DNA of 64,000 bases from positions 2,336,001 to 2,400,000 of the forward strand of contig CM000153.2 in assembly GCA_000004695.1 (NCBI GenBank). The letters run 5' to 3'. The notes under the pieces are model-generated. The model ran no database searches. It was not told the origin of the DNA and was given only the letters and a program-made list of their open reading frames with translations. Origin of the DNA: Dictyostelium discoideum (taxonomy: Eukaryota). Of the stretch, positions 5,092 through 64,000 are shown one piece after another (the stretch's first letter is position 1; each line of letters opens with the position of its first letter). The position numbers and the translations under genes are program-made.

Positions 5092-5126
5092 CTTAATTAA
5101 ATTAAAAATAACGAAAGTGCTATAAA

Positions 5127-5157
<31 letters not shown>

Positions 5158-5415: not shown

Positions 5416-5459
<44 letters not shown>

Positions 5460-5605
5460 TATATGTAAAAGAGGAAAAAAATAAAAAATAAAAAATAAAA
5501 TACATATAATTAATGAATGGTATTGTTATTTTATTTATTTAATTTAATTTTAATTTTTTATATTGAATGGGGTTATTTATTTATGAGAGAGAGAGAGAGA
5601 GAGTA

Positions 5606-6988: not shown

Positions 6989-7043
<55 letters not shown>

Positions 7044-7049
7044 TTCCAT
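5606..7049 (-). CDS. Mannose-6-phosphate isomerase (type I PMI), 2 exons
   Basis: Exon 1 is 6434..7049 and exon 2 is 5606..6348 (minus). The intron 6349..6433 runs GTAATT...TTTTAG, with phase-1 continuity. PMI signatures are YEWGKYGSNS, ELWMGDHVSAPSKV, ALSIQAHPD and GEPHAYISGDCVECMAPSDNVVRAGLTPK. The N-terminus has an 18-residue poly-Asn run. Confidence 0.85.
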
Positions 7050-7058
7050 TTTATAAAC

Positions 7059-7089
<31 letters not shown>

Positions 7090-10807: not shown

Positions 10808-10848
<41 letters not shown>

Positions 10849-10925
10849 ATTCCACACACACAAAAAAAGGTTTATTTTATTTTATTTTTATTAAATAAAA
10901 CTAAATAAAAAAAAAAAAAAAAAAA

Positions 10926-13635
<2,710 letters not shown>

Positions 13636-14366
13636 ATAATTATTTATGCAAATAACAATGTGTTATATATATTTATTAAAGTAACAAGTAAAAAAAAGTA
13701 TAGAAAACAATTATAAAAAAAAAAAATCAAAAAAAAAATTAAAAAAAAAAAAAATCAAAAAACAGATAACAAAACAGCTCCCAGGAATAACAATATAATA
13801 TGATTATTAGTAATAGTGATCTGTATGTTGAATATAGGTAATTGTTTGAATTACAAAAATTAAATAAAAATTAAATTAGAATAAAAAAAAAAAAAAAATG
13901 CTTATCAATGTAATAGTCAAATAAAATAAGAAATTCTAGGAATATTGAATTTTAAAAATAGATTTCTATTATCTCCAAAATACCTTTTTTTTTTTTTTAT
14001 TCTTTGTGGTAAAATAAAAATAAAACAAATATTTATAATATTATATTATTACTTTTAACTGGAATTTAAAAATTGGAAGCCTTAATTTGGATCAACAGTA
14101 CCATCATTATGAGGTGTATTACTGAGTTATTGAAAAAAAACTATTATCTTGTGATCGACAGTGATTCGATTTTAAAAATAAAGAAAATAAAAAAAAAAAT
14201 TGGCCAAACAGCAGATGAAATTAGTCAATAAAATAACCTGGATTTAAAATCAATTTTTTTTTTTTTGTTTTCTTATTAAATTCTAAAAAATTAAAAAAAA
14301 AAACTAAATTTGATATTTTAACATTTTTATTTTTTTTTTTTTTATTTTTTTTTCTAATTTTGCTTT

Positions 14367-14397
<31 letters not shown>

Positions 14398-14413
14398 CAT
14401 TTTCAAATTAAAA

Positions 14414-14435
14414 ATGGACACTTTTGGAAATAAGG

Positions 14436-14474
<39 letters not shown>

Positions 14475-14735
14475 GCAACAAAGATATTGATAATACAATT
14501 GAATCAAAATTAACATTAACACCCTCTCCTTCAACTCCAGAAAAAATAGTATCAACAGTAACAACTGCAGTAGCCAAACCAAAAAAAGAATTAAAGAATT
14601 TAGTATTATACAAGCTAATTGATATAAATAGTGCAAAATGTTATTTTAAATATCAAAATATTAGAAAAGATATTGAATTATTTATAAATAAAGATGATGA
14701 GCCATCATTTAGAATTCTACTTGAAAATAATGCCG

Positions 14736-14766
<31 letters not shown>

Positions 14767-15711
14767 TAATAAGTTTATTATTGAACAAAGTGCAACCACT
14801 CTATTGAAATCATATTTAAAGTTAGAAAAACCAATAAAAGGAAATAGTTATGTTTATATCAATGATAAGAAAATTGATGATTACTCTTTTGATTTTCTTA
14901 TATCTGCTACCAGTACCACCACTGCCACAACAACAACAACAAACACCACACCACAATCTAGTAACAAAACAATACCATCTACACCAGTGTCAGTATCAAC
15001 CTCAACCGAAAAAGCTAATCAACTCAATTCTACACCAGGTATTGATCAAACTCCATATAGAGAAATTAATGATCATAAATTAATAAAAAAAGTTATAATT
15101 AAAGAAAATACTCAAAAAGAAGTAGAAGTAGAAGAAGAGTATCAATTCATTAAGAAATCATCACCATCATTGAAACAACATATTCAAATTAAAGAAGAAG
15201 AAGAAGAAGAAGAAGAAAAAGAATTAATTATAGAGAATGCAAAAATAAAACCATCAGGTGTTGGTAGATTCTTTCATTTCGGATGTGAAAGATATTTATC
15301 ATTTTCAAGTAGACAAACTTATAAAGAGAATGATCCAATTAAATCAATTCAAAGTCCAATTTCATCTGTTCAACAGAAACTAATTGATGATGGTTTCATT
15401 TGGGAGGATAAAGTTTTAAAGTATTTACAAGATGAAAATGATATTAAAAATCCTAAATATAGAATATTTAAACCTGAAAATGGTCAAGCAGATTTATCAA
15501 TCTCTGAAACTATTAGAATTTTAAAAGATGAAAAAGTAGATTCAACCCCATTCTATATGATTCAATCAACACTTGAACCACCAAAATCATTTAGAAGAAA
15601 TTTACCTGACTCAATTAAATTTTCAATTTCAAAGCCTGATTTCTTATTAATTTCAAAAAAGAGTACTTATGACGATGATGGTGATGGTAATAAATCAAAT
15701 ACTACAACAGC

Positions 15712-15746
<35 letters not shown>

Positions 15747-18700
15747 CGGCAACAATTAGAGAAATTGAAATTCAAGATGCAAAATCAACAACAGTTATTG
15801 CATTCCATCAAAAGATTCAATTAGCATTCTATTCATTGTTATTGAATGACATTATTAAAGAATTTGGTATTAAAGATTTAGTAGTGTCAGATAGAGCTGG
15901 TATTTATTTAAAAGGTAATTTTAATGTTGAATATTTTTCATTAAAGGATTCAATTAAAATACTTGAAAGTTTTTTATTTGGTGATTCTATTAAAAAGAGA
16001 TCATATCTTTTAGATATCCTTTCAACACCAAAAGAAAAATCTCCTTGGATTCTTAGTGAAAGATGTGATGGTTGTGAATTTATAAACTATTGTACAAATC
16101 AATATGAAAATGAAAAAACTTTAAATTCTTCTGTAAATATAAAATCTTCATCATTATTAAATTTAATTAAACAAGAAAATGAAAAAGAAAAAGAAAAAGA
16201 AAAAGAAAAAGAAAAAGAAAAAGAAAAAGAAAAAGAAAAAGAAAAAGAAAAAGAAAAAGAAAAAGAAAATGAAAATGAAAAAACAAATCAATTAGAATTT
16301 TTAATGAAAATCGATAAAGAATCAATTAAAAATTTAGCACAAAGAGTTGATTTTATTAAATCTTTACCAATGATTGAAGCATCACTAACTGATAAAGTTG
16401 TACCAACTGGTTTATTCGATATTAGATTATCTTCATATGAAGATATTCAAGTTTATTTAGAAATTATACATAATCCAATTAATCAATCAATTTACCAATG
16501 GGGTGTTTTAGTTGTTGATAATACTATCACACCACCATCACCATCATCAAATAAATTTGCAAAAGGAAATGATTTCATTGAATTGGTTATGGGTTTATCA
16601 GTGATTTTCAACCAATATCATAAATCGAAATTATCATTACAATGTTATATATTTGATTCATTCCAAAAATCATTATTCTTTAAACAATGTTTTAAATTAT
16701 TAAAAGATATTAATAATAATAATAATAACATTAATAATAATGAAATTGAATTACATAAAGAATCAATTCTTTTAGTATTAAGAACTTTATTACATAGTAA
16801 TGAATGGATTAATTTAAATATTGGTCATTTTCCACAATGTAATGTACCTTTAAATTGGACATTATCAGATAGACAAGATGAATATTCTTTCTTGGTTATT
16901 AAAGATTTAATTAAAACTTCATTTGCTATAAATGTTAAACCATTTTATACATTTAATAATATTGTAAAGAAATTATTATCACCTTCATCAAATGCTAATG
17001 GTGATGAAGATGATGATGGTGATGAAATATTTAAATTAATAATTAATAATGAAGATTGTTCAAATATTATTGAAAATAAATTACATAAACAATTAGAATT
17101 AATTAATTATTTAAAATTAGTTGTATTTAAAGGTGAAGATTTAAAAGAAGTAAAGAAAGCAAACCAATTCTTAATTAGAGACAAATCAATTTATAATGAT
17201 AATAAATTATTAGCAAAATTATTTTATTGTTATCAAAATGAATGTATTTCATCATATAGAAAATTAAAACAAATTAGATCAAATCCATTAGAAATTAATT
17301 TATTGGAAGGAACATTCTACAAATTAAAACTATTATCAATTGAAGCAAATGGTGAAAAGAAATTTAGATTAACATTTTCAACCGATATAAACATTCAAAA
17401 TTATCAAAGATTTGAACATATCATTGATAAATCATTCTCAAGTTTTGCTTTAATTCAATTATCAAACTATAAACATATATGGTCTTTAAATGAAATTTTA
17501 TCAACTTCTTCAGATTTAAAAAATCAATTCATTGAATCAATTCCATCAATTCATTCACATTATATCATTAACAAATCAATTGATTTAATTTCAGTTTCAT
17601 TAGTTTTTGATGTTTCTTCAAATGTTAAATTTTTAAACAATATGTATGTATAAAATAAAAAATAAAATAAAATAATAATAATAATAATAAATCAATACTA
17701 ATATTAATAAATATTTATTTATTTATTTAAAAGTGGTGAAGAATTTTTATTTTTTGAAAAATATGATATTGGTTACTTTTCAATGCATAGAAGTTTATTA
17801 AAATCGTATGATGAAATGAATAAATCATCAATATTTTTAGATATATTAAATGACCCAAAGAAATGGTGTACCGAGAATATTGATAATGATTTTAAGAGAT
17901 TAACTGATCAAGTGATTGAATCATTTAAAGATATTAGTGGTATTAATCCAAATACTAAATTAGTGATGACAACTTCTCAACAATTAATATTCGATTCAAT
18001 CATTAAAAAGAGAATGCAATTAGTAAGAGGTCCACCAGGTACTGGTAAAACTCATTTCTTAGCATTGGTAGTATTAATATTTATGGAATCATTCAAGAGA
18101 AAAGAAAAACCATTTAGAATTGCTATAACTTCATTTACACATAATGCAATCGATAATTTGCTATTAAGAATTTCAGCATTAAAAAAAGAATATTCAATTT
18201 CTGTTGGTCAAGATATTAATTTCCCATTATTTAAAAAACAATCATCCAAATTAACTGATGAATTCAAAGATAATGATATTAAATTATTCGATAAAAAAGA
18301 TTTAACAAATCGTAATCATCTTTGTGTTGGTGCTACAAGTTGGTCATTATCAACATTGGATTATAATGATTTCGATTTATTAATCATTGATGAAGCTTCT
18401 CAATTAAGTAGTTTTATTGGCTCTATACCATTCCAAAGATTAAATAAAGAAACTGGTAAAATTATAATTTGTGGTGATAATAAACAATTAGGTCCAGTTT
18501 TAAATGACTCATATCCAAATAGAAAAGAATTAAATTGTAATCAAAATCAAAATCAAAATCAAAATAATAATAATGATAATCCAAAATTACATAAATCAGT
18601 TTTCTCTTGTATTAAATCTCATCTAATTGCAAATAATATTAAAAATCCATATTTATCACTTTATGAAAACTTTAGAATGAATAATCAACTTTGTAAATTC

Positions 18701-40163: not shown

Positions 40164-42598
<2,435 letters not shown>

Positions 42599-42838
42599 TT
42601 ATTTGTTTTGGTTTTTGAGTAGAAAAAAAAAAAATAAATAAAAAAAAAAAAGAAGATTTTTATTTTTAAAATTTTTTGAGAAAAAAAAAAAATAAAATAA
42701 AATTAAAAATAAAATAAAATTAAAAATAAAACAAATCAAAATTTATTTTTTTTTTTAGAAGAAAAACAATTATTATTATAATTATTATTTTAAATGATTA
42801 TTTTTTATTTTTATTTTTATTTTATTTTTATTTTATTT

Positions 42839-44249
42839 TTAATTATAAAATACTAAACTTGGGAATATATAAAAGTATTTTTTATAAGCAGTGTCGAAAA
42901 TATTTTTTGGAAGACGAAGATTTAATAATAAACCTTTTGTACGTTGAACGACAGCACATTGAATGATGACTTTACAATCTTTATCGATTTCAGGATCACG
43001 ACCATCCATATTGATACGAAGAGCACGATAATTATCGATACGAGCAGGATCTTGAGAGATGATACGTGCATTTTCGACAGAGTTTTCATAGAAAGACAAG
43101 AGGAGATCTTTATATTGCTCCAATTTGATTGGAGCACCCAAGTCCTCCAATGTGATATTAAATATTGGATACATTGGATAATCTTGATCGAGGAAAATTA
43201 AAGAGGTGAAATTGGATGATCTTGGGTCCATTGCGAATGATTTTGGAATGTGAACGTAGAATTTGAAGATGAAATTATAGAAACGATTGTAAACTGGTGA
43301 TTCTAAAAATGATGTGCCAATCTTTAAATCGGCTATAAAACGTTCGAATAGTGGTTCCCAAGAGTTTGATTCATTCTCTAAACATGTAAAGACCAATGAG
43401 AGATGAATATCTTCAATGGTTACATCGTAGTGGAAATGATGTTTATTATTAGTGATGGTAGTTGATTTTTTAGTTTCTTTAACTTGAGGAGTATTGGTTT
43501 TATTTTGAACTTCAACAACTAATGATAAGTTATTTGAAGAGTCTGTATATTCTTGATGTTTAGATTCTTTTTTTGATTTCCATGTCTTTGGTACCCAATA
43601 TTGGTAATAATAGGTTGCTGCTGATGATGAGCTTTTAATACTTGATGTGAATGCTTCCATTTGAGTGTATTTAAATCCTTTTGCTTCGAAATTCTTAAAG
43701 GTTTTACAACAATGTTCCAATGCTGGTAAATTCTTTGTGAATTCACCATTTGATGAGGTATATGAAATGATGAATACATTGTTATTCTTTATGAAGAAAC
43801 ATTGTTTATTTCTTACTTTTTGTTCTGGTGCATAATATGATAAAAAGTCTGCACTGTTTGAACCGATTTTACATGAACCTGTTTCAATATGGGTTGCATT
43901 AATTTGTTGAATTTGTTGAATTGAAATATCTAATAATTGTTTTGGTGTCATAGATTGATCTGATCCAGTTGATCCTAAAATTATTATTATTATTTATTAT
44001 TTTTTTATTAAATTCACTAATTCATTAGTAAATAGTTTTAATTATTATTATTTGTTTAAAAAAAAAAGAAAAAAACAAACCTTCTAAATTTTGAATTGTA
44101 ACATTAAGACTTGGTGAGTTTTTATCGTTTGATTCCATGAAAGATGCTAAAAACATTGCTGAATGTTCCTTTACTATCCAATTTGATGGATATTCAAGTT
44201 CAAAACCATATTGATTTGAAACGTATTTTGAGTATTGAATATCGCTCAT
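42839..44249 (-). CDS. Hypothetical protein, 2 exons, about 434 aa
   Basis: Exon 1 is 44081..44249 (MSDIQYSKYVSNQYGFELEYPSNWIV...). The intron is 43975..44080 with a GTTTGT donor. Exon 2 is 42839..43974. I recognise no confident domain. Confidence 0.5.
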
Positions 44250-44796
44250 TTTAATATTTGGGTTTTATGATATTTGAAAAGAAAGAAAAAAAAAAAAAAA
44301 AAAAAAATTAAAAATTAAAAAAAAAAGAAAAATTAAAAAAAAAAATTAAAAATTAAAACCGAAAAAAAAAAATTAAAAAAAAAAAAATAAAAAAAAAAAT
44401 AAATTTAATTAAAGGTCTTAATTCTCCCATGATTTTCATTTTTAGATAAAAGTAAAGAGGAGTTTAGTTTCCAAAATTAGAATCAAATTTCATCTAAATT
44501 TTCTTCTAAAACATAGGTGACTAAATTCAAAAAAATTTAAATAAATTATTCTCTTATATATAAATATATATAAATATTAATGAAATTGTTTGAAAAAAAA
44601 AAAAAAAAAAAAAAATCCTTTTTCGCGCTTTTTTTTATTTTTTTTTTTTTAATTTTTTTTTTATAAATTTTTTTTTTTTTCAACTTTTTTTTTTTTTTTT
44701 TTATTCTTTTTTACTTACTCTTATATTACATAATATATATTTTTTTGTATATATATAAAAAAAAGTTAAAATAAAATAAAAAAAAATAAAATAATA

Positions 44797-47142
44797 ATGG
44801 ATAGTGATGAAGAAACAGTTTTTAAAACACCAATAAAAAGAAAAAAGAGTACAACAATTATTGATGAAGAAGATGATGATATTTTAATAGATAAAGTTGA
44901 TAATGGTAATAACAAAGGTGATGATGAAGATATTAATTTTAAAACACCTTCACCAAAAATAAAGTCAAGATTAAAGAGAATTAAATCGTCACCTTCTTCT
45001 GACATTGATTTCACTCCATCACCAAAATCAAACCAAAAATCCAAAAATGGCACACCAAAAAGTACAACATCTTCACCAAAAATTGCAAATTCAACATCAC
45101 CATATAAACCAACAATAACACCACCAACAACTCCATCACCATCAAAAAAGGACCAAATTAAAAAGAAAATTAATAAATCTCCAATTTCTGCTACCCAATC
45201 TCCATCATCATCACCATTATCACAACCAAAATCAAAACCAATTCAAAATAATAATGATAATAATAGTTATGATAATGAAATTACTAATGATATTGACAAT
45301 CCTTGGGATTTCGGTACATCAGATATAAGAATGAATGATGATGGATCAATGTCAAATGATAATCAATATTTTGCAACACCTGAAAAATATTCTTCACCAT
45401 CAAAACAACAAGACCAAGATAAATCTCCATCACCTCAAAAAAATGTAAATAAAAAAAATGAAAAAGATTTTAAAATTAGTAACAAAAAAGTAATTTTAAG
45501 ATCAATTAAAGATAAGGACTTACTTTCTTTTAAAGGGGTTTCAAAACTTTATAATTCCTTAAAACTTTCTGGTTTCTCCACAAAACAGTCAAATAAAGTA
45601 AGTAATATTTTTTAAAATATATATTTTGACCATTTTATTTTAGAAAAAGGAAAATATAATAAAATAAAATAAAATAAAATAAAAATTTAAAATTAAAATA
45701 TTTCTATTTACCAAACTATAGGCAAATTTAGAAAAGTTATTTGGAATTTACTCTAAATGGACAAAAGAGCTTAATCCATATGTTACACTAGAAAATTCAA
45801 TTATTAATGTTGAGAGGTTGGGTAGAAATAGAATTGTTAGAGTAAGTAATAAAAAAAATAAATAAATAAAAAATTTAAAAAAAAGAAAAAGAAAAAAAAA
45901 AAATAGAATACTAACTTTACACTTTTTTTTTTTTCTTTTTTTTCTATTTATAAATCTTCTTTATAATTTTTTTTATTTTATTTCGTTAATAAATTTTTAG
46001 AATCATATTGATGATTTAAAGAATGGTATAGTGTTTAGTTATAACGAACCAAAAGTAGGTATCATTTTTTATTATAATTGGTGATTTTTTTTTTTTTTTG
46101 GCAATAGATTGTTTTGGTAAAATGTCGGTTATCGTTTTTTTAAAATAGTGTGTTTGTAATATAACCTTAAATATCTTTAATTTTTTTTTTTTTTTTTTGG
46201 TCCCAAAATGGACTCTTTTCCACTTTTACTTGTTTTTTTAAGTTAATAATAAAAAAAAAAAGAAACCATTTATAATAAAAAAAAAAAAAAATCATTTATA
46301 ATAATAAAAAAAAACAAATCATTTATTTATATTTATTAATCCACAAACATTTCACCACAACACAACACAACACTTCACAAAACACAACTATATTGGGTGG
46401 CTTCTGTGAGGTTAATGCATTTAAATTTTTAATCTCCTCGTTTACCACCCTAAATTAATTGCTAATGATGTCGTTTTTTGAAATTTTACATTTATGGTGT
46501 GTTGATTAATATGTGGGTATGTGTGTGTGTGTAACAACCACCCTTCCTCTTATTATTAACCTCCATTTTTACCCGAATGTTTATTTCATTTTTCACAATC
46601 ATTATCTCTTATCTCCTTATACCTATGTTGCAAAGATACAATTATAGGACAGATACGGATAAGACAACTTTATTATTATTATTATCATTTTTATTTTTAA
46701 AATAATTTATGGTTTATAATTGACCTTTTATTTGTTTTACATGTGTGGTGTGTGGTGTGTGGTGTGTTGTAAGTACTTGTGTGGTTTGTAATCAAAATAA
46801 ATTTTAAAAAGATAAAAAGAAATAAATAATCATAAAAACACAATCAGTACTGTTTTTTTTTGTTTCTAATTTTTTATTATCGTTATTATTAATTTTCTTT
46901 GAATACTAACATAAATTTCCAAATAATAAATAATAATTGTATTTTAGGATAATCAAAACGATGTTAATGATAATGATATTAAAAATAATAATAATAGTGA
47001 CGATTTTGATTTTGATATTGATAATGAAATATCAAATCCAAATAATAGTAAAGTTGATTTTGTGCCACCTCATCAAGCTAAAAAGAATGATAACACCCAT
47101 TCAAATTCTTTTGGACAATTTAAAAATAATAATATTAGTAAT

Positions 47143-47197
<55 letters not shown>

Positions 47198-47385
47198 TTA
47201 ATAATAATAATAATTTTAATAATAATAATAATAATTTTAATAATAATAATATAAATAATAATATAAATAATAATATAAATATTTTTAAAAAAGTCGCAAC
47301 TACCTCTATTTTACCACCTAAAGATAATAACGGAGGTAGAGGAGGCGGAATTAAATTATCTCTTCCCAAAAAACCATCAAAATAA
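44797..47385 (+). CDS. Ser/Thr-Pro (CDK-consensus)-rich basic nuclear-type protein, at least 3-4 exons
   Basis: Exons are 44797..45597 (many S/TPxK sites such as KTPIKRKKS, FKTPSPKIKS, FTPSPKSNQKS), 45722..45841 (ANLEKLFGIYSKWTKELNPYVTLENSIINVERLGRNRIVR) and 46001..46054 (NHIDDLKNGIVFSYNEPK). All three have GTAAGT/GTAGGT donors. A putative last exon 46948..47385 is in phase after an 893-nt intron, and this last join is inferred only. Confidence 0.5.
46741..46776. promoter_or_regulatory. GT-rich G-box-like element (TGTGGTGTGTGGTGTGTGGTGTGTTG), a candidate GBF-type developmental enhancer
   Basis: The sequence motif is visible directly. Similar islands lie at 46503-46533, 49188-49212 and 49658-49692. 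The functional assignment is an inference. Confidence 0.3.
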
Positions 47386-47501
47386 AAATAGAAACTTATT
47401 TTTTTTTTTTATTATTTTTTTTTTTTTTTGGTTTTTGGTTTTTGGTTATCAATACCAATCAAAAGGGGAAATATTGGTCATTTAAATAAATAAAAATAAA
47501 T

Positions 47502-47542
<41 letters not shown>

Positions 47543-47999
47543 AAATTTATATATTTTTTATTTTAATTATTTCTTTTATCTTTTTATTTTTTAATTTTTT
47601 TAAATTAATCTTTTTTTATAAAAATATTATAAAAATCGATTTTGTTCAAGATCGATTTAAATCTAATACTACAAATAATTAAAAAAAATACAATCTGCAT
47701 AATAAAATTATTTTTATTATTATAATAACGAAAATATAAAAAAAAAAATAATTATAAATTTTTTTTTTATTTTTTATTTGTAATTAGAAGATCAAATACA
47801 ATAAATAGATCTTAAATATAATCATTACAAAAAGGTTTTTTTTTTTTTTTTTTTTTTAATTATTTATTTATTTCATTATACAACAACAAAAAGGAATCAT
47901 AAAAAATTTTTTTTTTTTTTTTTAATTATTTTTTTAATTTTCTTTTAAAAAATCGATTTTTCCTATATTCAATATATATATATATATATGTATCGACAC

Positions 48000-48039
<40 letters not shown>

Positions 48040-50459
48040 AAATAATCAAATTACAACAAGCGTGTTAGGCAAATTTTTATTTATTTTTTTTATTCTTTTT
48101 TTATACTTGCATTCTTTTTTTAAAAGAAAGGTGTGGGAATTCCTAATTACAAAAGAAAAATTTTTAGGAGATTGTATTGAGATAAAAATAGATTCAATGT
48201 CGAAAATGATTTCAGGTTATATTTTTTTTATTTTTTTTATTTTTTTTTGTTATTTTTATTAATCTAATATGATGGTAAAAAAACAAAAAAATTAATGGAG
48301 CAGTTCACAAGATTTTCCAATTTTTCTTTTTTTGGAAGATTTTAAACAAAAATAAAATTTTAAAAAATATTTTTATTTTTAATGTATGGGAGTTTTCAAT
48401 TTTTATTTACGTGGGTAGGAGTAATAAAAAAAAAAAAAAATTATTAAGTACCAAATTTTATAAATTTTCTTCATTTAATATTCCCAACTACAAAAAAAAA
48501 ATCCAAAAATCTAATTATCTACCTACCAAATTTAACTATTTTTAGAATATTTTTTAACACCAAAGCATTTCTCAATCATTTTTATTTTTATTTTTATTAT
48601 TTTCATTTTTACAAGTAGATATTTTTTTATTTTTTAATAAAATTAACATCGTAATTAGATATTTTTAATTAATTTTTTATTTTCTTCTTTTCTAATTTTT
48701 TTTTTTTTTTTTTTTAAAAAAATCTCAATGTTTTTGCAAAATTTTTTTATAATAATTTTATTTTATTTTATGATTTGTCAAAAAAAAAAAAAAAAAATTA
48801 TTAATAATAATATTAATTGGAATATTTTGTAAACTGTCTTTTTAAACTTTCAATCCCACATGCACACCACCTACACACGATTGCTTATTGAAATTATCTG
48901 TAAAACTTTAAAAATAGATTAGTTTGTATATGTAAAAATGTTAACATTTTTGTTTTATTTTTGCCAGTGTTTGTTGATTTTTCATGATAAATAAATATTC
49001 AATTAATTTATTGTGAATAAAAACAAATTGATTTCAATATTGATAAAAAAAAGTAGTACTACTCAATATTACCACGCATTTACAAAACAAATAAAACACT
49101 ACAACACACACACACACACTAACAAACAAGCTAAAACACACACACATTTTAACCCACTAGATAGAATATTCTATTTTTTGTTAGTTTAGTTAAGTGTGTG
49201 GGTGGGGGTTGTCAGTTTTAATAGCAGATTAAATCTACCCCTTAATATCACACGTACTTCCCAAATTCTATTTAACATTTTATAAAAATAGGGTTCGGTA
49301 AATTAATAATTACAAAGCTCCATTAATTAATTTGGTGGTATTTGGATTTAAAAAATGTAATGGTGCCTGGTGCCTAGTAGTTGGGGTTTATAAATTTTAT
49401 TTTTTATTTTTATTTTATTTTATTTTATTTTATTTAATTTTATTTTATTTTGTTTTGTTTAATATAACTATATTTTTGTCTGTTTTATAAGATTTGTTGG
49501 GCTTGAGTGTGTATGTTGGTATTATTGAATATCAATAATTTTAAAAGTTTCATTGATACATGATATTATCTTATCTATTTTTTGGTACTTATTCACTTTG
49601 TGAAACTTGAAATAATAATAAGATCGTATGAACAGATTATTAAAGTATTATTTTTTCTTGTTGTGTGTGTGTGGGTGTGTAAGTGTGTGTGGTAAATATT
49701 TATTTTTTTATTATTGTTTTATATTTAAAAAATTCTCTTACCAAAATAAAGTATCATCTCATATTATTGTCAATTTTAAAATTTTAAAACAATTCATTAT
49801 TGATATTATTTGATATTAATAATTTTGAATAACAACATATTATTAACTAACTACAAAAAAAAAAAAAAAAAAAAAAAAAAACACAATTAATTATTTATTT
49901 ATAATTAAAAAAAAAAGAAATTTTATTTATAAAAAAAAATCAAGTAATAACAATAACATTGTTTGTATTATTTTATATAAATTAATTTTTTTGTTTACAC
50001 TTTTTGATAAAATTTATATAAAAATTAGAGTTGCATTGCCTTTTTTTTTTTTTTATTTATTTATTTTTTTTTTTTATTTAATTTATTTTATTTTAAATTA
50101 TAAAATAATTTTTTTATTTTTTATTTTTAATTATTTTATTTCTTCCTTAATTTTGGGTGATTTTTCAATCTTTAAATAACAGATATTTAGTTTTTATTGT
50201 GGTCGTAATAACATAATACAAAATTAATTTAAAAAATAAAAAAAAAATAATTGGAATTTTAAAAAAAGATAAAGATATTTATTATTAAATAAATAAAAAA
50301 AAATTGTGTAATATACCTGTTCCATATTAAATACACACAATTTTTTTAATATAGCAGTTTCATTTATTTGTATAAATATATTTTTATACTTTAATTTTTT
50401 TTTAAATCTACCTCCAACCAAAAAATAAAAAAAAAAAAACTAAAACAAAAAATAAAATA

Positions 50460-50510
<51 letters not shown>

Positions 50511-50787
50511 CTAAAACACCATCAACAACAACAAACGCCACCAACACCACAATAAGAACACCAATATTTACATCCCTACATTACCAACAAAAAAAACCAC
50601 CACTAGTAACAAACCACTACCAAATACATTCCTTCCACTCATGTTTATTACAAAACTTGATATTTTTCAATCTACCCAATATATTAAACATTGAATATTA
50701 ATTTTTTAATTTTTTTAAATTATATAACATTTTTTAAAAAAAAAAAATTAAAAAAATAAAAAAGAAGATTTAAAAATAATAAAAATA

Positions 50788-50824
<37 letters not shown>

Positions 50825-51218
50825 AAAAACAATAATAGTAATAAAAATAACACCAAAATAATAAAAATAATAATATTATCAATAACAATAAAATAAAAAA
50901 ATAAAAATAAATAAAAATAAATAAAATAAAATAATATTATAATCAAAAAAAAAAAAAAAAAAACAAAAAAAAAAAAGAGATAAAAACCCAAATTAAAAAT
51001 CAATCATTTTGACAAGGTCTATTGTTGGGTTAAAATAAATTAATAAATTTAGTTATTATTAATAAAACCACGGCAAAAAGCCAAAATAATAATAAAAAAA
51101 TAATACTTATAATAATAATAATAATAATTCTCATTGAATTAGTTTAAAAAAAATAATAATATTTATTTCCAATATTTATTTTATTTATTTTTATTATTAT
51201 CTATTTATTTTTTGGTTT

Positions 51219-51265
<47 letters not shown>

Positions 51266-52416
51266 ATTTAAACAAAACAATAAGTTTTAATTTTTTATAA
51301 ATAATTTAAATATAACAGTGTCCAATTAAAAAAGACCAATTTAAATTAATTTTTATCTCTAAAGGTATCTTTTTTAAAAAAAAAAAAAAAAAATTATAAA
51401 AAATCATTATTCTATATATAAATTTTTATAATTATTTAAGAATATTTTTAAATAATAAAGCCTTCACCCCCCATCAAACACACATTTTTATTATTTTTAT
51501 TATTACTCATACAAAAAAAAAATATCGAAAACCACCATACAATCATACATATACATATTTATAGTTTTTGAATTTTAATAAAACATTATAACTCCCACAC
51601 TCACACACAGCAATAAATTTTAAAAAGTGTAAAAGAAAATTAGTTTTTTAAAAAATTATTCTCCTAACCACCCCAAAAACAAAAAATTATTCTTTTATTA
51701 TTAAAAATTTTTTTTTTTTTTTTTATCGTTGTTACATTTTTTATTTAAACCATTTTTTTATTTTTTTTTTTTATTTTATTTTCAATATTCAAATCACATT
51801 AATTAATATCCTATTGCTCATACCTTTTTAACCTAAAATTAAATCAATTTTTACTTCTTTTTTTTTTTTTTTTTCAAAACCACCAATTATAAATTGAATA
51901 ATAAATAAAATTTTTTAACTTTTTTTTCAATCAAAAAACCACCGTTTTTAAAAAAAAAATTTTTTAGTTACCAATTCGTTAGTTTTTAAAATAATTTTAA
52001 GATCATAATCACCCCAAACCACTGCATATCTTAAAAAAAAAAAAAAATTATTAATTAATTAAATTTCACAAATAAATCCTTATCCTTAGTAAAAAATTAA
52101 TCAACAAAATATCTACCGTAATTTTTTTTTAAAAATATCTTCAATCAATTAATTAATTAACATAATTTTTACCAAAGTAATAAAAAAAAAATAAAAAAAA
52201 AATAAAAAAAAATAAAAAATAAAAAATCTATAAATAGAGAACAAAAAAAAAAAAAATAAAAAATAAAACATTAATCACTACAACTGTAACATTAAAAAAA
52301 TAATAAATTATTTATTTCAAAAAAAAAAAAAAAAAGATATAAATAGTTTTTAATAAATCCAAAAAAAAAAAAAAGAAGAAAATAAAAAAATAAAATTTTA
52401 TATTTCCTCATTTACA

Positions 52417-52520
<104 letters not shown>

Positions 52521-52565
52521 GATCAATTTATTTAAATAAATAATTTAATAATAATAAATAATAAA

Positions 52566-53651
52566 ATGTCTTTATCTTTGGGTGATATCAAATTTCCAGA
52601 TAATTGGGATTTAATTCCAAATGAAAAAAATTACATTGATTATGTTTACAAGGAATCAATTGAATTAGAAGTATGGAGACCAAATAATAAAAGAGATTTA
52701 ATGGCACATAATAATGTTGTAAGTTTGGCTAAATATTTCTGGCCACATGTTGATTTCAATAGATTAGTAATGGGTGGAGAATTAATGGTATGGTTCTTTT
52801 CATTTGATGATGTTCTTGATGCTGGTATCTACACTGATGAAAAACAAATGGATTTGGTGAAAAGAATGGATAATGTGTTTATTAATGGTACTGTTGAGTC
52901 TGATGCAACTGGTCCAGAGAAGATGGCTCTCCACCTTAGAAAGAAATGTGAAGTAATGTGTGGCAAAAGAAGAAAGGATACCTTCAACCGTTTCATCTCT
53001 TCATGTGTCCAATGGGTCGATTCAATTATTCCATTCAATAAACTTCGTTCAGCTCAAGGCACATCCCCACATTTAGAATTATACTCATACTTGAGAAAAG
53101 TTAATATCGGTGCATATCCATGTGTCACTCTTACTGAAGTAATGTTAGATCATGAAATTGAATATTACATTTGGTCAGACCCAAAATGGATCAAAATGAA
53201 CGAAGACATCGCCATCATCACCACCTTAATCAATGATTTAGTATCCTATGAAAAAGAAGTCAATGATCAAGCAGGTGACTTGAATCCATTATACTTCCTC
53301 CAAAATCAAAAGAATATTCCATTACCAGATTCTTACAAACAAGTGGTTGATCTCATTGATTTCTGGGTAAAAGATTACCAAACCATGGAACAAAGTCTCT
53401 TAAATGAAATGGAATTTAAAGATTCAAAACAAAGAAGTGATATGGAATTCATATTGGAACATCTTCGTTATTTAGCTAGTGGTTCAAAGAAATGGTCAAT
53501 GCAAACACCTCGTTATTGCTCTCCAACTTCTCCATTCATTGAAATGAGAACTAAACCATCAACTCCAGTTATGAATTCTACAAAAAAACAAAAAATTGAT
53601 CATGTTCCATCTCAATCATTTATTTCAACACCAATTGATTTAAATAATTAA
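52566..53651 (+). CDS. Microbial-type class I terpene synthase
   Basis: This is a single 361-aa ORF. The metal-binding DDxxD motif is [10 protein letters not shown]. The NSE/DTE triad is NDLVSYEKE. The overall size and helical composition match the Dictyostelium and fungal terpene synthase family. Confidence 0.75.
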
Positions 53652-53836
53652 AAAAAAAAAAAAAACAATCAATAATATATATATATATTTTAAAAAACCA
53701 CTCGATCAATATATTTTTTTTTTAATGTATAAAAAAAGAATATTAAAAAAAAATAATAGTTAATAAAATTTGACATAAATTCAATTTTAATAGAGAATTT
53801 CTATTTAAAATTTAATTATATGATTTACTCATAAAA

Positions 53837-53894
<58 letters not shown>

Positions 53895-54761
53895 AATTTC
53901 CATAGTTTATAATTAGAAATAAAAAGTCGGTTATTTTTATTTTATTTTTTAATTTTTATAAAAATTGAATAAAAATTTTATTGAGTTTTATTTAAAATGT
54001 TAATTGAAGGTGATAATCTGAAAATTAAATAACGTTTAAATAAAAATTTAAAAAAAAAATTAAAATTTAAAAAAAAAAAAAAAATAAAAAAAAAAAAAAA
54101 CTGTTTAAAATGTTTAAAATTATTGATAGGTTAAAAAATGGATTTACAAATAAATGGATATTGTTCCATTCTAAAATGAAAAAAAAAATAAATAAAATTA
54201 ATATCTTAAAAAAAAACCAACATAATTTAAAAAAATAAAAATTGCTAAAATATATTTTTTAAATATGATGTCATTCAAATGATTTTAATTTTAAATAATT
54301 TTTACAAAATGATATTTATTGGATAGTAAATAGCTGAATTTTATTAATTTAATTTTTTAAAGTGGACCAATTCCATTATACAATTTGATTATATAAAAAT
54401 GGTATACTTGTAAAAAATTAATGGCGCAATTAATTTTATCTTTTTTTTAAAAAAATATTTATTATTTTATTATTCTATTTAAAACTATTAAAAATAGTTT
54501 TTTTTTTTTATTTTTTTTTTTTAACTGTATTAATAAAATAATGGAATAACAAAAATTATGTTGTAGGGAATTTTCCATAAAATTTCACTACAGTAGCGTA
54601 GTGAATTTTATTATTTAATTTCCCTACAGTAGCGTAGTGAAAAAAAAAAATCACTGACCTTAAATTTTTTTTTTTTTCAAAAAACAAATAAAGTTTATTA
54701 AATTGAAATTTTATTTTTTGTTTTAATTATTATTTTATTTATTTTTATTATAATTATTGTT

Positions 54762-54801
<40 letters not shown>

Positions 54802-54942
54802 CAATTTTTTTTTTTTAAATTTTTTTCAATTTTTATTTGTTTATTAAATTGTAATTTTATTTTTTGTTTTAATTATTATTTTATTTATTATTATTGTTAA
54901 TTTTTTTTTTTTTTCAATTTTTTTTTTTTTAATTTATTTTTA

Positions 54943-55340
54943 TTAATTTATTTTTATTAACTCCCTGAGTTGTTCAATTGCTTGATTTACCATATCACTG
55001 TAAACACTGCACACAATTGAATTTTTTCTAGCTTTGTTACCTCTGGTGCATTTGATGTTTTTGCATTTTCCTTTGTATACAAAAAAGTCCAAATATAATT
55101 CGTTTTCTATTACAGTTTTTACACAATGTTGGTGAAATTGTTTTGATTTTAATTCTAATGCTTCTAACATCATATTTGAATTTTTAACGATTAAAGCATC
55201 ACCACTATTTACATATAGTACTTTGGCTGCTTTTTCGAGGAATTTAGTCAAATTTTCCTCTGAATCTAACTATTCTTCATTGCCATATTCAATGGCTAAA
55301 TTTCTTAAGAGTTTTATCGAATCTATTAATTCTTCGATCA
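54943..55340 (-). pseudogene. Second short ORF inside the transposon, interrupted by an in-frame stop (MIEELIDSIKLLRNLAIEYGNEE*LDSEENLTKFLEKAAKVLYVNSGDALIVKN...)
   Basis: The 102-aa ORF 54943..55251 extends upstream in frame to an ATG at about 55330, but it is broken by TAG at about 55262. Its function is unknown. It is flanked by ~150-bp internal tandem duplications (54690-54760 and 54840-54905). Confidence 0.35.
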
Positions 55341-55704
55341 TTCTTTTTTTTTGAAATTTTTTTTTATTTTGTTTTTTCAATTTTTTTTTTTTATTTTGTT
55401 TTTTCAATTTTTTTTAAGTTTTATTTTTTTTTATTTTTTTTTATTTTTTTTAACAAATGTAATTTTTTTTTATTTTTTTCAATTTTTTTTTTTTTTTAAT
55501 TTTTAATTTTTTTTTTTTTTTTTAATTTTTTGTGTTGATTTGTGTTTTTTTTGTTTTTTTGATTTGGCCACTTGTTTTTATTTTCTAATTTCCCCATACC
55601 CCCTTCTATTAATTGCAACCAAATCAAGTTCTAATTTTTGTGTCCTTGTTGACTTTGTTTTTGCAACTTTTTTTGAAGGTATCACATTAACGATTTTTCC
55701 TATT

Positions 55705-55940
55705 GATGGTGATTTGGAAGGTGATTTAAATGGTGATTTAAATGGTGAATTGGAAGGTGATTTAAATGGTGAATTGGAAGGTGAAATGGATGGTGATTTG
55801 GAAGGTAATTTAAATGGTGATTTGGAAGGTGATTTAAATGGTGATTTAAATGGTGAATTGGAAGGTGAAATGGATGTTGATTTGAGAGGTGATTTGGATG
55901 TTGATTTGAGAGGTGATTTGGATGGTTTAGAATGTGATTT
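55705..55940. repeat. 12-bp-period tandem repeat (GGTGATTTGGAA/GGTGATTTAAAT/GGTGAATTGGAA...), about 20 copies, abutting the assembly gap
   Basis: A direct read shows the repeat. The + strand reads (GDLEGDLNGELEG)n and the - strand reads (KSPSKSPFKSP)n. The coding strand cannot be assigned. Confidence 0.8.
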
Positions 55941-55974
55941 TAAAGGAGGTTTATTAACAATTGGTATCTTATGA

Positions 55975-56094
55975 NNNNNNNNNNNNNNNNNNNNNNNNNN
56001 NNNNNNNNNNNNNNNNNNNNNNNNNNNNNNNNNNNNNNNNNNNNNNNNNNNNNNNNNNNNNNNNNNNNNNNNNNTGTTCTAAAAATATCAACTG
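55975..56094. other. Assembly gap (120 N)
   Basis: A run of n characters is visible in the sequence. Confidence 1.
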
Positions 56095-57759
56095 TTGATT
56101 GTTTATAAAGAACCAACTTGTTACCTCCTACAAAACCAGAGTATAAACCTTTTTTTTGAAGGCTATTGATTCCATCTTCCAAAAATTCAAGTTTATAAAG
56201 TTGTTTAGTGTCTTCCTGTATTACCTTATGAATTTTACACAAAATCAATATTTTCTATTAGAATTAAATATAAAATTTGTTAATTATTACTGTTTCATAT
56301 ATTATTAATCTTTATGTTTTAATTACTTACATTATTTTTTTTAATTTCTAGAAAGAGTACAGTATCACCAACTTTCAATCCCTTTGGTGGTTTTGAATTC
56401 CATTGATTTTGGTAACTTGTGAGATTTTCAAGAATAATAGCTGTTCTTTCTTCTTTTGAAACATCTGAAACACCAATTGATTGAGAGTCTTGTTCTGATT
56501 GAACATTAATAAACAAAGGAACAATACCAACAGCTTGAGATGGTTTCATTTTAATTGTTCTTGTTTTTGTATTATTGTAATCATACAAAGCTTGTTTTAA
56601 TAGTTCAGAAAGAGACCTAGAAGTACCATCAAGAAAACTAAAATTTATTTATAAATGATTAATTAATAAACATATCGATAATTTATATTGTTCACAATAT
56701 CATACTCTTGTTGTTTTAATTTTGAGATCCTCTCCTTGATAGTTCGATTCAATCTTTCTACCATACCTTGAGTTGTTGGTGTACGAGGAGCTCCATGTGC
56801 TGACTTGGAGCCTGGAAAAAGTTTTAGGAATTCTTTTTGGACTTTGTTTTTAAATTCACGTCCATTATCGCAGTGCCATACTTTCACAGGTTTGCCAAAG
56901 TACGTGAGAGCCAAAAAATTGTATATGGGAACTGTTCTCTTTGTTGTCAAACATCTAAAAAATAAATGATAATTAAAATAAAAAAAGAAAACTAATAAAT
57001 TAATAAATAAAAAATAAATACCTTCCAGTAGCAAATTTTGTAAAAGAATCTATGCATAGAATAATGTAAACAACATCGGTGTCGTACGGTTGTACAGAGT
57101 CATATTGGATAAGATCATCTAGTTTAGTTAGTATCTTTTCATTATCATCATCGTATGTAACTTTTTCTTTATGTTCACCTTTAATTGATGTTAAATCATA
57201 AACCAATCTTGAGTATTCCTCGGTATCTACAATTGGAGCAAAATCCTTTGTTATACCTATTAATTTATTTAAATTATTAAAAGAGTTTTAATATAAAAGT
57301 TACAAAACATCATATAAAAATGATTGATACCAAACCTTTTATTCTATTTCGTTGGCAAATGTCACACGTATCTACTGCATCAGATACAAAAGAATACAAT
57401 CCCATATTATAATATTTAGTCTTGTAGTTCCCATAGGTTGCATCTCTTCCTATATGACCTTTATGCATTTCTTCCCAGAGTGATACCATTCTATAATCAT
57501 TAATTACTTCTAAACACACTTCTTTTGATATATTTCTATCTCCGCCACAATTCATGACTTTTTTTTCAATTCTAAATAATTTTTCTTTTCTGTTTCTGTT
57601 TTTTATTGGTCAGAATTTAAAAAATGATTGTGTTATTGTAAGGAAAAATATTTACTCATCATGTAAAAATTTATAATTTTTATGTTTAGTATTTTCAAAA
57701 TTATTATCTTCAATAAATTTTAAATAATTTATAATTTCATTTATTTTATCTTGTTTCAT
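56095..57759 (-). CDS. Integrase-like transposase (HHCC zinc finger, DD35E core and SH3-like C-terminal region) of the Tdd-4-like element. Multi-exon, with the 3' end truncated by the N gap.
   Basis: See the mobile_element entry. The HHCC finger is H-x3-H-x29-C-x2-C. The core residues are ..DTD.., ..CDNG.. and ..E.. in ERLNRTIKE. The exon joins keep the frame. One junction near 56588/56663 is either a stop (..NYRYVY*) or a 68-nt GTATGA intron. Confidence 0.6.
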
Positions 57760-57774
57760 TTTGGGAAAATGAAA

Positions 57775-57809
<35 letters not shown>

Positions 57810-58344
57810 TGTTGGGGAAAAAAAAAAAAAGTTTTGGCCCAAAAAAAAAAAAAAAATTAAATTAAAAAAAAAAAAAATTAAATTAAAAAAAAAAAAAATT
57901 AAAAAACCTTTTTTTAAAACTATTATTCAATTAAAAAATAATATTTTAATAAACTTTTTTTGTTTTTTGAAAAAAAAAAATTTTAGGGCCAGGAATTTTT
58001 TTTTTTCCTTCCCCTCCTGGGGGAAATTTAATTAATAAATTTCCTTCCCCTCCTGTAGTGAAATTTTTTTTAAAATTCCCTCCCACCCTTTAATTTATAA
58101 AATTTATTATGAATAAAAAAAATTATTTTTATATTTCCAAAATTTATTATATTTTAAAAGAAAAAAAAATTTAATTTTTTAATTAATGAATAGAAAAAAT
58201 TTTATTTTCATTTTTTTTTTTGGGGGTTACCCCCTTTTTTTTTTTTTTTTTTAGTGTCCAATATGGTGATTTTTCCAATTGATAAAAAAAATTTTTTTTT
58301 TTTAAATTTTTTTTTTTTTTTTAAAAAAATTCAATTTCTTTTTT

Positions 58345-58409
<65 letters not shown>

Positions 58410-58560
58410 ATTTTTTTTTTTTATTAATATTATTGTTTTTTTTTATAAATTAATTATTTTTATCTATTTCTTTAAGACAAATTATATAAATCAATTATAT
58501 AAATAGATAATATAAAGAAAAATAGGAATAATAAAATAAATAAAAAAATAAAATAAAAAG

Positions 58561-61811
<3,251 letters not shown>

Positions 61812-61941
61812 AAAAAAAAAAAATTGCAATAAATAGTAAAAAGAATAATAATAATAATAAAATTAAATTAAAAATAAATGATATCATTTAATTGATTTTA
61901 AAGGTTTTTTTATTTAATTTTATTTTTTCAATTTATAATTA

Positions 61942-62964
61942 TTAATTATTATTTGATGGTAATAAATCAGCAATTGTATTTGTATAATAATTTGGATTAA
62001 TTTTTGAATCGATATTATTAATTTCATTTAATTTTGATATACCTGTCAAAACTAATAGACTCCTTATTCCTCCATTAACAGCAAAAGCGATATCAGTATC
62101 TAATCTATCACCAACAAATAAAGTTCTCTCTGGATTTAAATTATCTTTTTTTAAAATTACATCTAATAGTAGTGTTTCAGGTTTACCAATTGTAATGGGT
62201 TTAACTCCAGTTGAAGTTTGTATCATTGCTACGATTGAACCTGCACCTGGCAATGTTTTTTCATTTTTCACTGGATATGAAGTATCAGGATTGGTTGCAA
62301 TAAATAAACAACCTTCAATTTCTTTTATACACATATGAGCATAAGTTGCCTTTTGAAATGTTAATTGTGTATCCATACCAACTATAACTGCACCAACATC
62401 TTTATCAATAGCTGTATTTTGAACACTATCTAATCCATCTTTTAATTTATTAATCTATAGATTTGGATTATTTTTATAATTATTATTTTTATTATTTTTA
62501 AAATTAATGATTGAATAATCAGTAAATTAATTATGTATGAGTATATATTTTTTGATTTTATTTACTTCTTTAATAGTTTTAAAATTTTGATCGTTTAATT
62601 CTTTTTCTAAACCATGTTCGCCAATAATGAAGACTTTTTTAGTTTCTTTTGGGAAGTTGATTTGATTTAGATAAATTGCAGCCCCATATGATGATCCATA
62701 CACCTCATCTATGAAAGCTTCGATATTAAATGATTTGATTTTCTCCAAGAATTGTTGTCTAGTTTTCGTACTATTATTTGTAACAAAAAGAATCTTTTTT
62801 CCAAGTGTTTGTCTTAAATAATTTAAAGTTTCAATAGCTCCTGGTACAATAGTATCTGCAATCCACAATACACCATCACAATCAAAAATAAATGTATCAA
62901 TTGAATCTATAAAAGATTTTTTATTTTCTTCATCAATTTTTGTACTATAGGTTACCAAATTCAT
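61942..62964 (-). CDS. HAD-IIA phosphatase (phosphoglycolate phosphatase/PNPPase, PGP/Pho13 family), 2 exons, about 303 aa
   Basis: Exon 1 is 62566..62964 (FIFDCDGVLW ... FVTNNSTKTRQQF). The intron is 62455..62565 (GTAAAT...CTATAG). Exon 2 is 61942..62454 (GKPETLLLDVI...VGDRLDTDIAFAVNGG...). Confidence 0.8.
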
Positions 62965-63421
62965 TTTTATTATTACTATTATATCTGAAAATTAATATTC
63001 AAAAAAATAAATTGATTAAAAAAAAAAAATTGAAAAAAAGTAAAAAAAGAATGATTAAAAAAAAAAGAAAAAAAATTTAATTTTATTTTTCTTTTTTTTT
63101 GTTTTATTTAGCAAATGATTTAATTTGATTTATTTTTAATATGAATTTGGTATAGATATATATATGTTGGTCATTGAATTGTCCAATTTTTTTTTTTTTT
63201 AAATTATTATTGTTATTATTTATTTAAATAAATTAATAAATATTAATAGTAATTTAAATTTTATTTTTTGTATTATTGTTTTTTTATTTTAAATTTCCCA
63301 TTTCATTTCCGACTTTAAAAAAAAAAAAAAAACCATATTTTGGTCACTGCTTTTCCTAAATCTACAAAACAAAAACCAAAAAAAAAGGTTTTATTCTTTG
63401 TATAACATTTTTTAACAAAAA

Positions 63422-63453
<32 letters not shown>

Positions 63454-63479
63454 ATTGAATAAATATTATTATCAATTAT

Positions 63480-64000
63480 TTATTTGGTAATTGAATCTTC
63501 TTTTTTTGATATTGGATTTTCATCAATCATTGTTGAGGAATTTGAAATTGATGATGACATAGTTGAATTTGAGGAGGAAGAGGAATAGTTTGAAGAAATA
63601 GTTGAACTACCTTCCATTCCTTTAATTGGTTTTGATAAAGATAAAAGTTCTTGGATTGATTGTTTCAAAGAGAAATTATCATTTGTTAAAAGTGTTCCAC
63701 GCATTGGTGAAGATAATTTACTATGATAAGGTGACATTCTACTCAAAGAAGGTGATGTGAAAGAAGCAATATTTAAGTTTGTTGCATATGAGCCATCAGC
63801 ACTTCCACTTCCATAACTATTGCTACTACCACCACCACTACTATCAACTAAACCAGGATTAGTTGACCATTTTGGATTAAAACTTAATACATTCTCTGTG
63901 ACTCGATTAATTACATTTACAAATGCGCTCCTCCATTGTTCTTTCTCTTCTTCATTTGGTAAACAAATCACTAATGTACAGTCCAAAGTGTGTAATTTAA
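63480..64000 (-). CDS. Partial gene (3' part only): protein with a PH-domain-like C-terminal helix (CLPNEEEKEQWRSAF) followed by a Ser-rich tail
   Basis: The ORF runs off the window edge. Only the motif-level resemblance supports the call. Confidence 0.4.
   Translation of the reverse strand, partial: KLHTLDCTLVICLPNEEEKEQWRSAFVNVINRVTENVLSFNPKWSTNPGLVDSSGGGSSNSYGSGSADGSYATNLNIASFTSPSLSRMSPYHSKLSSPMRGTLLTNDNFSLKQSIQELLSLSKPIKGMEGSSTISSNYSSSSSNSTMSSSISNSSTMIDENPISKKEDSITK

Follow-up and report, generated by a model that had tools for sequence, protein, structure and literature searches.

The 64,000-nucleotide stretch of Dictyostelium discoideum DNA analyzed here (contig CM000153.2, positions 2,336,001–2,400,000; hereafter the window) contains, at positions 54559–58088 on the minus strand, what is almost certainly one genomic copy of Tdd-4, an integrase-type (Ginger2/Tdd) cut-and-paste DNA transposon. 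An earlier note on this DNA had proposed a Tdd-4-type DNA transposon, and this assignment is borne out by protein identity, by DNA colinearity with a full copy at another locus, and by the features of the family. The copy belongs to an already known family, lies in the species in which that family was first described, and represents nothing new. Tdd-4 is said to have been described by Wells in 1999, with isolation by plasmid capture and a figure of 145 bp for its repeat.

The spliced protein encoded by the window copy was compared with D. discoideum proteins and is 99% identical to DDB_G0292352 (AX4), 93% identical to DDB_G0282919 (AX4), and 92% identical to P0001 and P0002, both full length. 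The lower identities among Tdd-4 proteins reflect differing gene models, not divergence. A published list of dictyBase genes (PMC12405889) gives DDB_G0282919 the label ‘DDB_G0282919_TE, Tdd-4’. The DNA of the element runs colinear with that of L001, a complete Tdd-4 copy from a different locus (positions 1722–7791; assembly GCA_054883475.1), matching it at 99.93% over 1,431 bp, 98.3% over 936 bp, 99.0% over 408 bp, and 100% over two blocks of 153 and 73 bp. Low identity is confined to the right end, whose final 400 bp fall to 87%. In the paper defining the Ginger elements, TDD-4 is given as 3,839 bp long, with 260-bp terminal inverted repeats (TIRs), 5-bp target-site duplications (TSDs), and TGTNR termini, and as possessing the H2C2 and DDE motifs while lacking GPY/F and YPYY (PMC2836005). 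All of the published Ginger2/Tdd features (TGTTG termini, long TIRs, an A+T-rich target, and HHCC and DDE motifs without GPY/F or YPYY) are present in, or compatible with, the window copy, which begins with TGTTG at 54559 and lies in extremely A+T-rich DNA.

Comparison with alleles lacking the insertion defines the element independently of its coding content. The open reading frame (ORF) at 52566–53651 matches terpene synthase 6 (tps6; AX4 DDB_G0284707) at 100% identity, and the coatomer beta (copB) gene occupies 58561–61683, starting at 58561; the element follows the stop codon of tps6 by 907 bp and precedes the ATG of copB by 472 bp. The tps6 locus was examined in three other assemblies: L003 (GCA_054883475.1), L004 (GCA_054859385.1), and L005 (GCA_054859355.1). 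In all three, tps6 and copB are separated by ~1.3 kb, versus 4.9 kb in the window, and the TIR motif was not found in the tps6–copB interval of any of them. By BLAST, L003 positions 1–11970 correspond to window 42535–54558 at 99.5% identity and positions 11968–17830 to window 58089–64000. The alignments of L004 and L005, strains 91–95% identical, also break exactly at window 54558; alignment resumes at 58089 in L003 and, for the two divergent strains, at 58097 and 58324. Because the empty-allele alignments break at these positions, the element extends from 54559 to about 58088 and both of its flanks derive from a single site. Owing to the poor sequence there, the right boundary could be off by about 1 base. 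The earlier bounds of 54565–58078 therefore identified the correct region, but the ends lie instead at 54559 and ~58088, and the suggestion that the two flanks belong to different copies is not upheld, since in the empty alleles the two outer flanks directly adjoin each other.

In L003 and L004 the empty site has CAAAAATTA joined to AATTAATAAAATTT. Lack of the insertion is the ancestral state, being common to the divergent strains as well. We considered whether AATTAAATTA at the empty site could be an excision footprint and rejected this, as the two strains of 91–95% identity carry AATTAAATTA too and a third carries AATTAAATAA; the site is ancestral. As a separate observation, L004 and L005, both labeled D. 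discoideum, are only 89–96% identical to window 48720–63160, while GCA_054883475.1 is 99.5% identical in the left flank, a wide spread for one species name.

For the 5-bp TSD raised in the earlier note, the left copy, AATTA, is exact, whereas the right copy reads CTTTA, so that the duplication can be inferred only. The right flank following the element reads CTTTAATTTATAAAATTT, and every mismatch in the right TSD affects an expected A. The anchors AATTCCCT and ATAAAATTT are 15 nt apart; a 5-bp duplication would put 16 nt between them (ACAACA + AATTA + AATTA), and the absence of a duplication 11. A 5-bp AATTA duplication is probable, supported rather than cleanly read; at L001, a clean 5-bp duplication, TCATC/TCATC, borders the copy. 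Scans of the window for tRNA genes and Rfam families gave no match, and there is thus no tRNA-linked targeting of the kind associated with TRE or DGLT-A. Further Tdd-4 copies were sought in the window by BLAST with the L001 element, which returned no match outside 54500–58150.

The two ends of the element are inverted repeats of unequal quality. The longest inverted repeat of the region pairs 54560–54712 with 57934–58086 (153 nt, 74% complementarity), and in the clean copy at L001 the arms reach 238 nt at 89% identity. The imperfect inverted repeats described earlier at ~70 bp are therefore real but longer, no less than 153 nt in the window copy and 238 nt in that at L001. When the four termini of the window and L001 copies are aligned, three of the four are near-identical and begin TGTTGTAGGGAATTTTC; the window right end carries many scattered changes. 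Subterminal direct repeats of 26 nt occur as a pair in each arm, most clearly in the left one, and the same pair is found at both ends of L001. The 26-nt core AAATTTCACTACAGTAGCGTAGTGAA matches the window twice, both times in the left arm. These repeats are putative transposase-binding sites.

The window was compared with a composite reference made from the L001 end and the L003 flank. Differences are concentrated in 57750–58400, a stretch of ~550–650 bp that spans both element and unique flank, and reach 22 per 50 nt. Over 57850–58350, A>T and A>C changes and inserted T predominate; at 58300–58400 the differences mostly concern poly-T length; and in the next 1.2 kb after 58400 there are none, save one indel near 58950. 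A truly degenerate right repeat was considered and rejected, as the excess of differences runs ~300 bp into the unique flank and then drops to zero. We infer, short of proof, that 57750–58400 consists of poor base calls at a repeat/unique junction of the source assembly. The poor sequence accounts for the detection of only ~70 bp of imperfect repeat in the earlier note and for the 26-nt core being matched on the left only. An undamaged right end is predicted to read ...CACTACGCTACTGTAGTGAAATTTTATGGAAAATTCCCTACAACA followed by AATTA. The stretch also holds odd strings, such as GGGGGTTACCCCC.

Turning to the transposase, the 715-aa reconstructed protein contains a zinc finger of the HHCC type (H71-x2-H74-x29-C104-x2-C107) and a DDE catalytic core of RNase-H fold with the triad D183-x37-D221-x36-E258, and lacks GP[YF] and YPYY. 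The HHCC finger and DD35E core proposed earlier are thus both present, except that the final spacing, from D to E, is 36 and not 35. The Pfam family Integrase_H2C2 was matched at 33 bits, above its cut-off of 25.5, and rve_3 scored 23.6, just under its own cut-off. A sequence search of the PDB matched retroviral integrase cores, with Rous sarcoma virus (RSV) integrase at E = 7.7e-6 and further matches to human immunodeficiency virus (HIV), human T-lymphotropic virus (HTLV), and prototype foamy virus (PFV) integrases. The alignment to RSV integrase places D221 at the DNG motif and E258 at the MVER motif.

For structural comparison, an AlphaFold2 model of the close homologue P0001 (92–95% identical to the window protein) stood in for the window protein. 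The mean predicted local distance difference test (pLDDT) score of this model is only 53.9, because over half of the chain is disordered: the core reaches block means of ~80–90, and the rest, including the SPxx tail, is disordered. The usable parts are the core and, weakly, a five-strand beta domain (residues 350–409; block-mean pLDDT ~55–73). A Foldseek search of the PDB with this model gave as top match the full-length integrase of the PFV intasome (E = 8.6e-15; ~390 aligned columns against a 366-residue target), followed by matches to Ty3, simian immunodeficiency virus (SIV)/HIV, maedi-visna virus (MVV), mouse mammary tumor virus (MMTV), and the RSV two-domain integrase; the PFV, Ty3, and HIV matches have E of about 1e-14. 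These modeled similarities support a three-domain integrase layout that would include a small C-terminal beta domain. As for the SH3-like C-terminal region suggested earlier, the modeled beta domain is compatible with such a domain, the matches being to the model as a whole.

The gene comprises six exons on the minus strand, separated by five introns of 84, 79, 67, 68, and 76 nt, each of the form GT..AG and 80–93% A+T, and the joined exons form an open frame of 437 aa that is uninterrupted up to a run of N. The exons and short AT-rich GT...AG introns read earlier on this strand are therefore correct. Three independent NCBI gene models (P0001, P0002, and P0003) place the junctions of exons 2–6 identically; the exon 1/2 junction has as its sole basis the GT..AG reading and continuity of the frame. 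The Tdd-4 gene described by Wells in 1999 reportedly has six introns, the sixth being of the AT-AA type and alternatively spliced. A search for this sixth intron in the window copy did not locate it, leaving five GT..AG introns only.

The run of N had been recorded as 120 bases at 55975–56094; it is in fact 100 bases long and ends at 56074. It conceals ~440 bp, since L001 positions 5209–5650 span both of its edges. The 147 residues that lie across it, between ...DIFRT and HKIPIV..., were supplied from P0002 and P0003. Beyond the gap, the frame from 55973 to 55578 encodes HKIPIVNKPP, 15 SPxx repeats (a 12-nt tandem array at 55705–55926), a basic tail, and a TAA stop. As assembled, the copy measures 3,530 bases including the 100 N, its first base, 54559, opening the sequence TGTTGTAGGG... 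Its true length is estimated at ~3.87 kb (3,530 − 100 + ~440 = ~3,870 bp, the gap size being borrowed from another copy), against a published 3,839 bp (PMC2836005).

Downstream of the transposase stop lies a further minus-strand frame, which may encode either the last exon of the Tdd-4 gene or a second protein of the element. Its in-frame TAG is not a defect of the window copy, because it is shared by the L001 copy and the AX4 model P0003 stops at the same point (GNEE). NCBI models differ at this end of the gene: P0001 and P0002 end with RRGYGEIRK*, and P0003 splices RRG to MIEELIDS...GNEE*. In other models the downstream frame is a separate small gene, and gene predictors either stop at the TAG or skip it by way of a GC-AG mini-intron. 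Homologues of the frame are confined to proteins predicted from Tdd-4 copies of D. discoideum, and neither the frame nor the SPxx tail matched any Pfam family.

Table 1. Features of the Tdd-4 copy in the window
Feature	Position	Strand	Basis or remark
Whole Tdd-4 copy	54559–58088 (right end approximate)	−	Breaks against three empty orthologous sites; colinearity with L001 1722–7791
Run of 100 N	55975–56074		Conceals ~440 bp (147 codons) of exon 6
Exon 1, ATG at 57759	57656–57759	−	N-terminus MKQDKINEIINYLKF in common with P0001
Exon 2, HHCC zinc finger	57336–57571	−	Frame and motif
Exon 3, first catalytic Asp (D183)	57022–57256	−	Frame and motif
Exon 4, D221 and E258	56706–56954	−	Frame, motif, RSV integrase alignment
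Exon 5, linker and start of predicted beta-rich C-terminal domain	56331–56637	−	Frame, structure model of P0001
Exon 6 before gap	56075–56254	−	100% identical to L001 5057–5209
Exon 6 after gap, same frame, to TAA stop at 55578–55580	55578–55973	−	Identical to C-terminal part of DDB_G0292352 (AX4)
Downstream frame MIEELIDS...LRELIKIN, one in-frame TAG, ~131 aa	54943–55343	−	ORF reading
Left TIR (3′ side relative to gene), begins TGTTGTAGGGAATTTT	54559–54712	+	Near-identical to both L001 ends
Right TIR (5′ side relative to gene), heavily altered, chiefly by A>C and A>T changes on + strand	57934–58088	−	87% identical to L001, versus 98–100% elsewhere in element
Two 26-nt subterminal direct repeats, 36-nt offset, consensus AATTTCaCTACAGTAGCGTAGTGAA	54580–54605, 54616–54641	+	0 matches expected by chance
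TSD AATTA	54554–54558 (left, exact); ~58089–58093 (right, reads CTTTA)		Empty sites; right copy in poor-quality stretch

Several other origins for this gene were weighed against a Tdd-4 copy. The protein is integrase-like in both sequence and fold, and long terminal repeat (LTR) retroelements adjoin other Tdd-4 copies (the neighbors of L001 and L002 include RVT_1, RNase H, and rve), so the gene could be the integrase portion of an LTR retrotransposon of the Skipper or DGLT-A type, the remainder lying beyond the gap or having been lost. This origin is exceedingly improbable and is refuted by the empty sites, according to which the insertion consists only of the TIR-bounded unit of ~3.5–3.9 kb, with no reverse transcriptase (RT), RNase H, or gag inside; its sole coding regions are the transposase gene and a short frame specific to Tdd-4. 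In addition, the terminal repeats are inverted and not direct, both gap edges are colinear with 440 bp of Tdd-4 coding sequence, the gene has introns, and the flanking genes are tps6 and copB. The earlier note had foreseen an alternative in which the ends are LTRs and RT and RNase H are found beyond the gap; neither lies past the gap, and its description of an integrase without adjacent RT, RNase H, or gag stands, the element lying between the terpene synthase 6 and coatomer beta genes. Equally little probability attaches to a single-copy host gene domesticated from an integrase, as which an intron-containing gene with its visible frame open might be read. The locus is missing at the orthologous position in three assemblies, one of which is 99.5% identical in the left flank and free of differences in the right flank past the poor stretch; near-identical copies occupy other loci, the TIRs are retained, and 19 Tdd-4 elements are recorded in dictyBase. 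Domestication, floated in the earlier note, is thus not sustained, the orthologous site being empty in three assemblies and the family multi-copy. Nor are the termini unique, a finding that would have pointed to a host gene; other copies share them.

That the element represents a different Ginger2/Tdd family, such as Tdd-5 or an unnamed relative, is very unlikely. Related families do exist, as a second group of Dictyostelium proteins (P0004–P0016) is 38–56% identical, and the comparison was made with descriptions rather than with TDD-4 and TDD-5 reference nucleotide entries; against this, the window protein is 93% identical to the product of a gene named Tdd-4 by dictyBase, and the estimated ~3.87 kb is near the 3,839 bp of TDD-4. 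C-terminal tandem SPxx repeats, of which the window copy has 15 units, were reportedly noted as a Tdd-4 feature by Wells in 1999. A larger, though still low, probability is assigned to a chimera, in which the assembly collapsed reads of several Tdd-4 copies, or joined them over the run of N, so that the interior does not represent the copy inserted here. The 100-N gap lies inside a multi-copy repeat, the sequence at the right junction is poor, and with copies >98% identical reads may be mis-assigned; yet both outer junctions map to one empty site, the two sides of the gap are colinear and share orientation and frame, and the identity of the element would be unaffected.

Certain points weigh against the assignment to Tdd-4 or against the completeness of the copy. 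The Pfam rve score of 27.8 is under the gathering cut-off of 32.6, although the PDB sequence matches and the Foldseek matches lend support to this core. About 20% of the coding sequence falls inside the N gap, and the 3′ part of the gene, with its final intron and exon, is ambiguous, as gene models disagree past the SPxx region. The outer 230 bp of the right repeat and the right TSD are corrupted, and the latter rests on a spacing count and three of five matching bases. Finally, the family assignment was made through a dictyBase-labeled gene, the L001 copy, and the published description, not through the Repbase TDD-4 sequence or the original GenBank entry. No evidence was found that contradicts Tdd-4.

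By extension from retroviral integrases and DDE transposases, we propose that the Tdd-4 transposase would bind the paired 26-nt subterminal repeats of each end and bring the ends together. The metal site formed by D183, D221, and E258 would then expose a 3′-OH at the terminal ...CA, and both strands would be transferred into target DNA 5 bp apart, with repair of the stagger giving rise to the AATTA duplication. The original Tdd-4 paper is said to have proposed the SPxx tail as a minor-groove DNA-binding module, a role that is plausible by analogy.

The window copy is probably young and possibly autonomous, because its visible frame is open and its body is 98.3–100% identical to a copy elsewhere; its intactness cannot be certified, as ~440 bp are hidden in the gap. 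The properties bearing on autonomy are an open visible frame, an insertion polymorphic between assemblies, 440 hidden bp, and an unreadable right end. Possibly, although we would put it at somewhat less than an even chance, the insertion is a very recent transposition in AX4-type sequence, absent from the near-identical L003 and from two more divergent strains, that could be an autonomous source element and could alter the promoter of the essential copB gene. The insertion falls in the likely copB promoter region. Tdd-4 transcripts have been reported from 19 elements, with 25-fold derepression in rblA-null cells (PMC3386910). Splicing is uninformative on domestication, since the host polymerase transcribes the element like other transposons.

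In practical terms, the insertion in the window is genuine, polymorphic between strains, and delimited by defined breakpoints. The assembled sequence of 57750–58400 is not reliable, and calling the copy degenerate-ended or truncated would be an artefact. Tdd-4 is said to be the first eukaryotic cut-and-paste element found with a retroviral-type integrase, with a bearing on the origin of LTR retroelements reportedly established in 1999 and 2010; the significance of the window copy itself extends little past correct annotation.

The L001 and L002 copies lie in transposon clusters, and the window copy stands alone in gene-dense DNA. RVT_1 and rve genes (1–877 and 8689–9022) lie on either side of the L001 copy. 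The L002 copy (5840–8481) is apparently cut off ~360 bp past the transposase stop and has an LTR-retroelement pol (RT, RNase H, integrase) nearby. An element of ~760 bp is inserted three times inside the L001 Tdd-4 (2107–2881, 4297–5058, and 6106–6869) and once just outside it, inverted (7977–8736). Its copies are 98–99.6% identical, with inverted termini CACAGCAAAGAAAAA...TTTTTCTTCGCTGTG and internal 12–13-nt tandem repeats and a palindrome; to judge from the flanks, it duplicates 2 bp on insertion (TA at the first site), and at one site 30 bp are deleted. No copy of this element is present in the window, and ARAGORN found no tRNA in it. It could be a non-autonomous element of the thug or DDT type.

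Among known systems, the window copy differs in nothing of substance from Tdd-4, apart from its sequencing gap and corrupted right end: it comes from the same species, its protein is 93–99% identical to those of annotated Tdd-4 genes, and it shares the intron-containing HHCC, DDE, and SPxx gene, the long TIRs with TG..CA ends, the 5-bp TSD, and a length of ~3.8–3.9 kb. Tdd-5 and P0004–P0016 share the Ginger2/Tdd grouping, the domain order, and the host genus, but have only ~48% protein identity (38–56%), and P0004 has a different end, with no SPxx tail. Metazoan and fungal Ginger2 elements have TIRs (45–180 bp), TGTNR termini, A+T-rich targets, and H2C2 and DDE motifs without GPY/F or YPYY, with TSDs of 4 bp in contrast to the 5 bp of Tdd-4 and Tdd-5 (PMC2836005). 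Ginger1 and Gypsy/retroviral integrases share the HHCC finger, the DDE core, and the small C-terminal beta domain that the structural model suggests here. However, Ginger1 and Gypsy carry GPY/F (often with YPYY), which the window protein lacks, and whereas Gypsy and retroviral integrases reside within a pol polyprotein and act on the LTR ends of reverse-transcribed DNA, the window enzyme is encoded by a stand-alone, intron-containing gene between inverted repeats.

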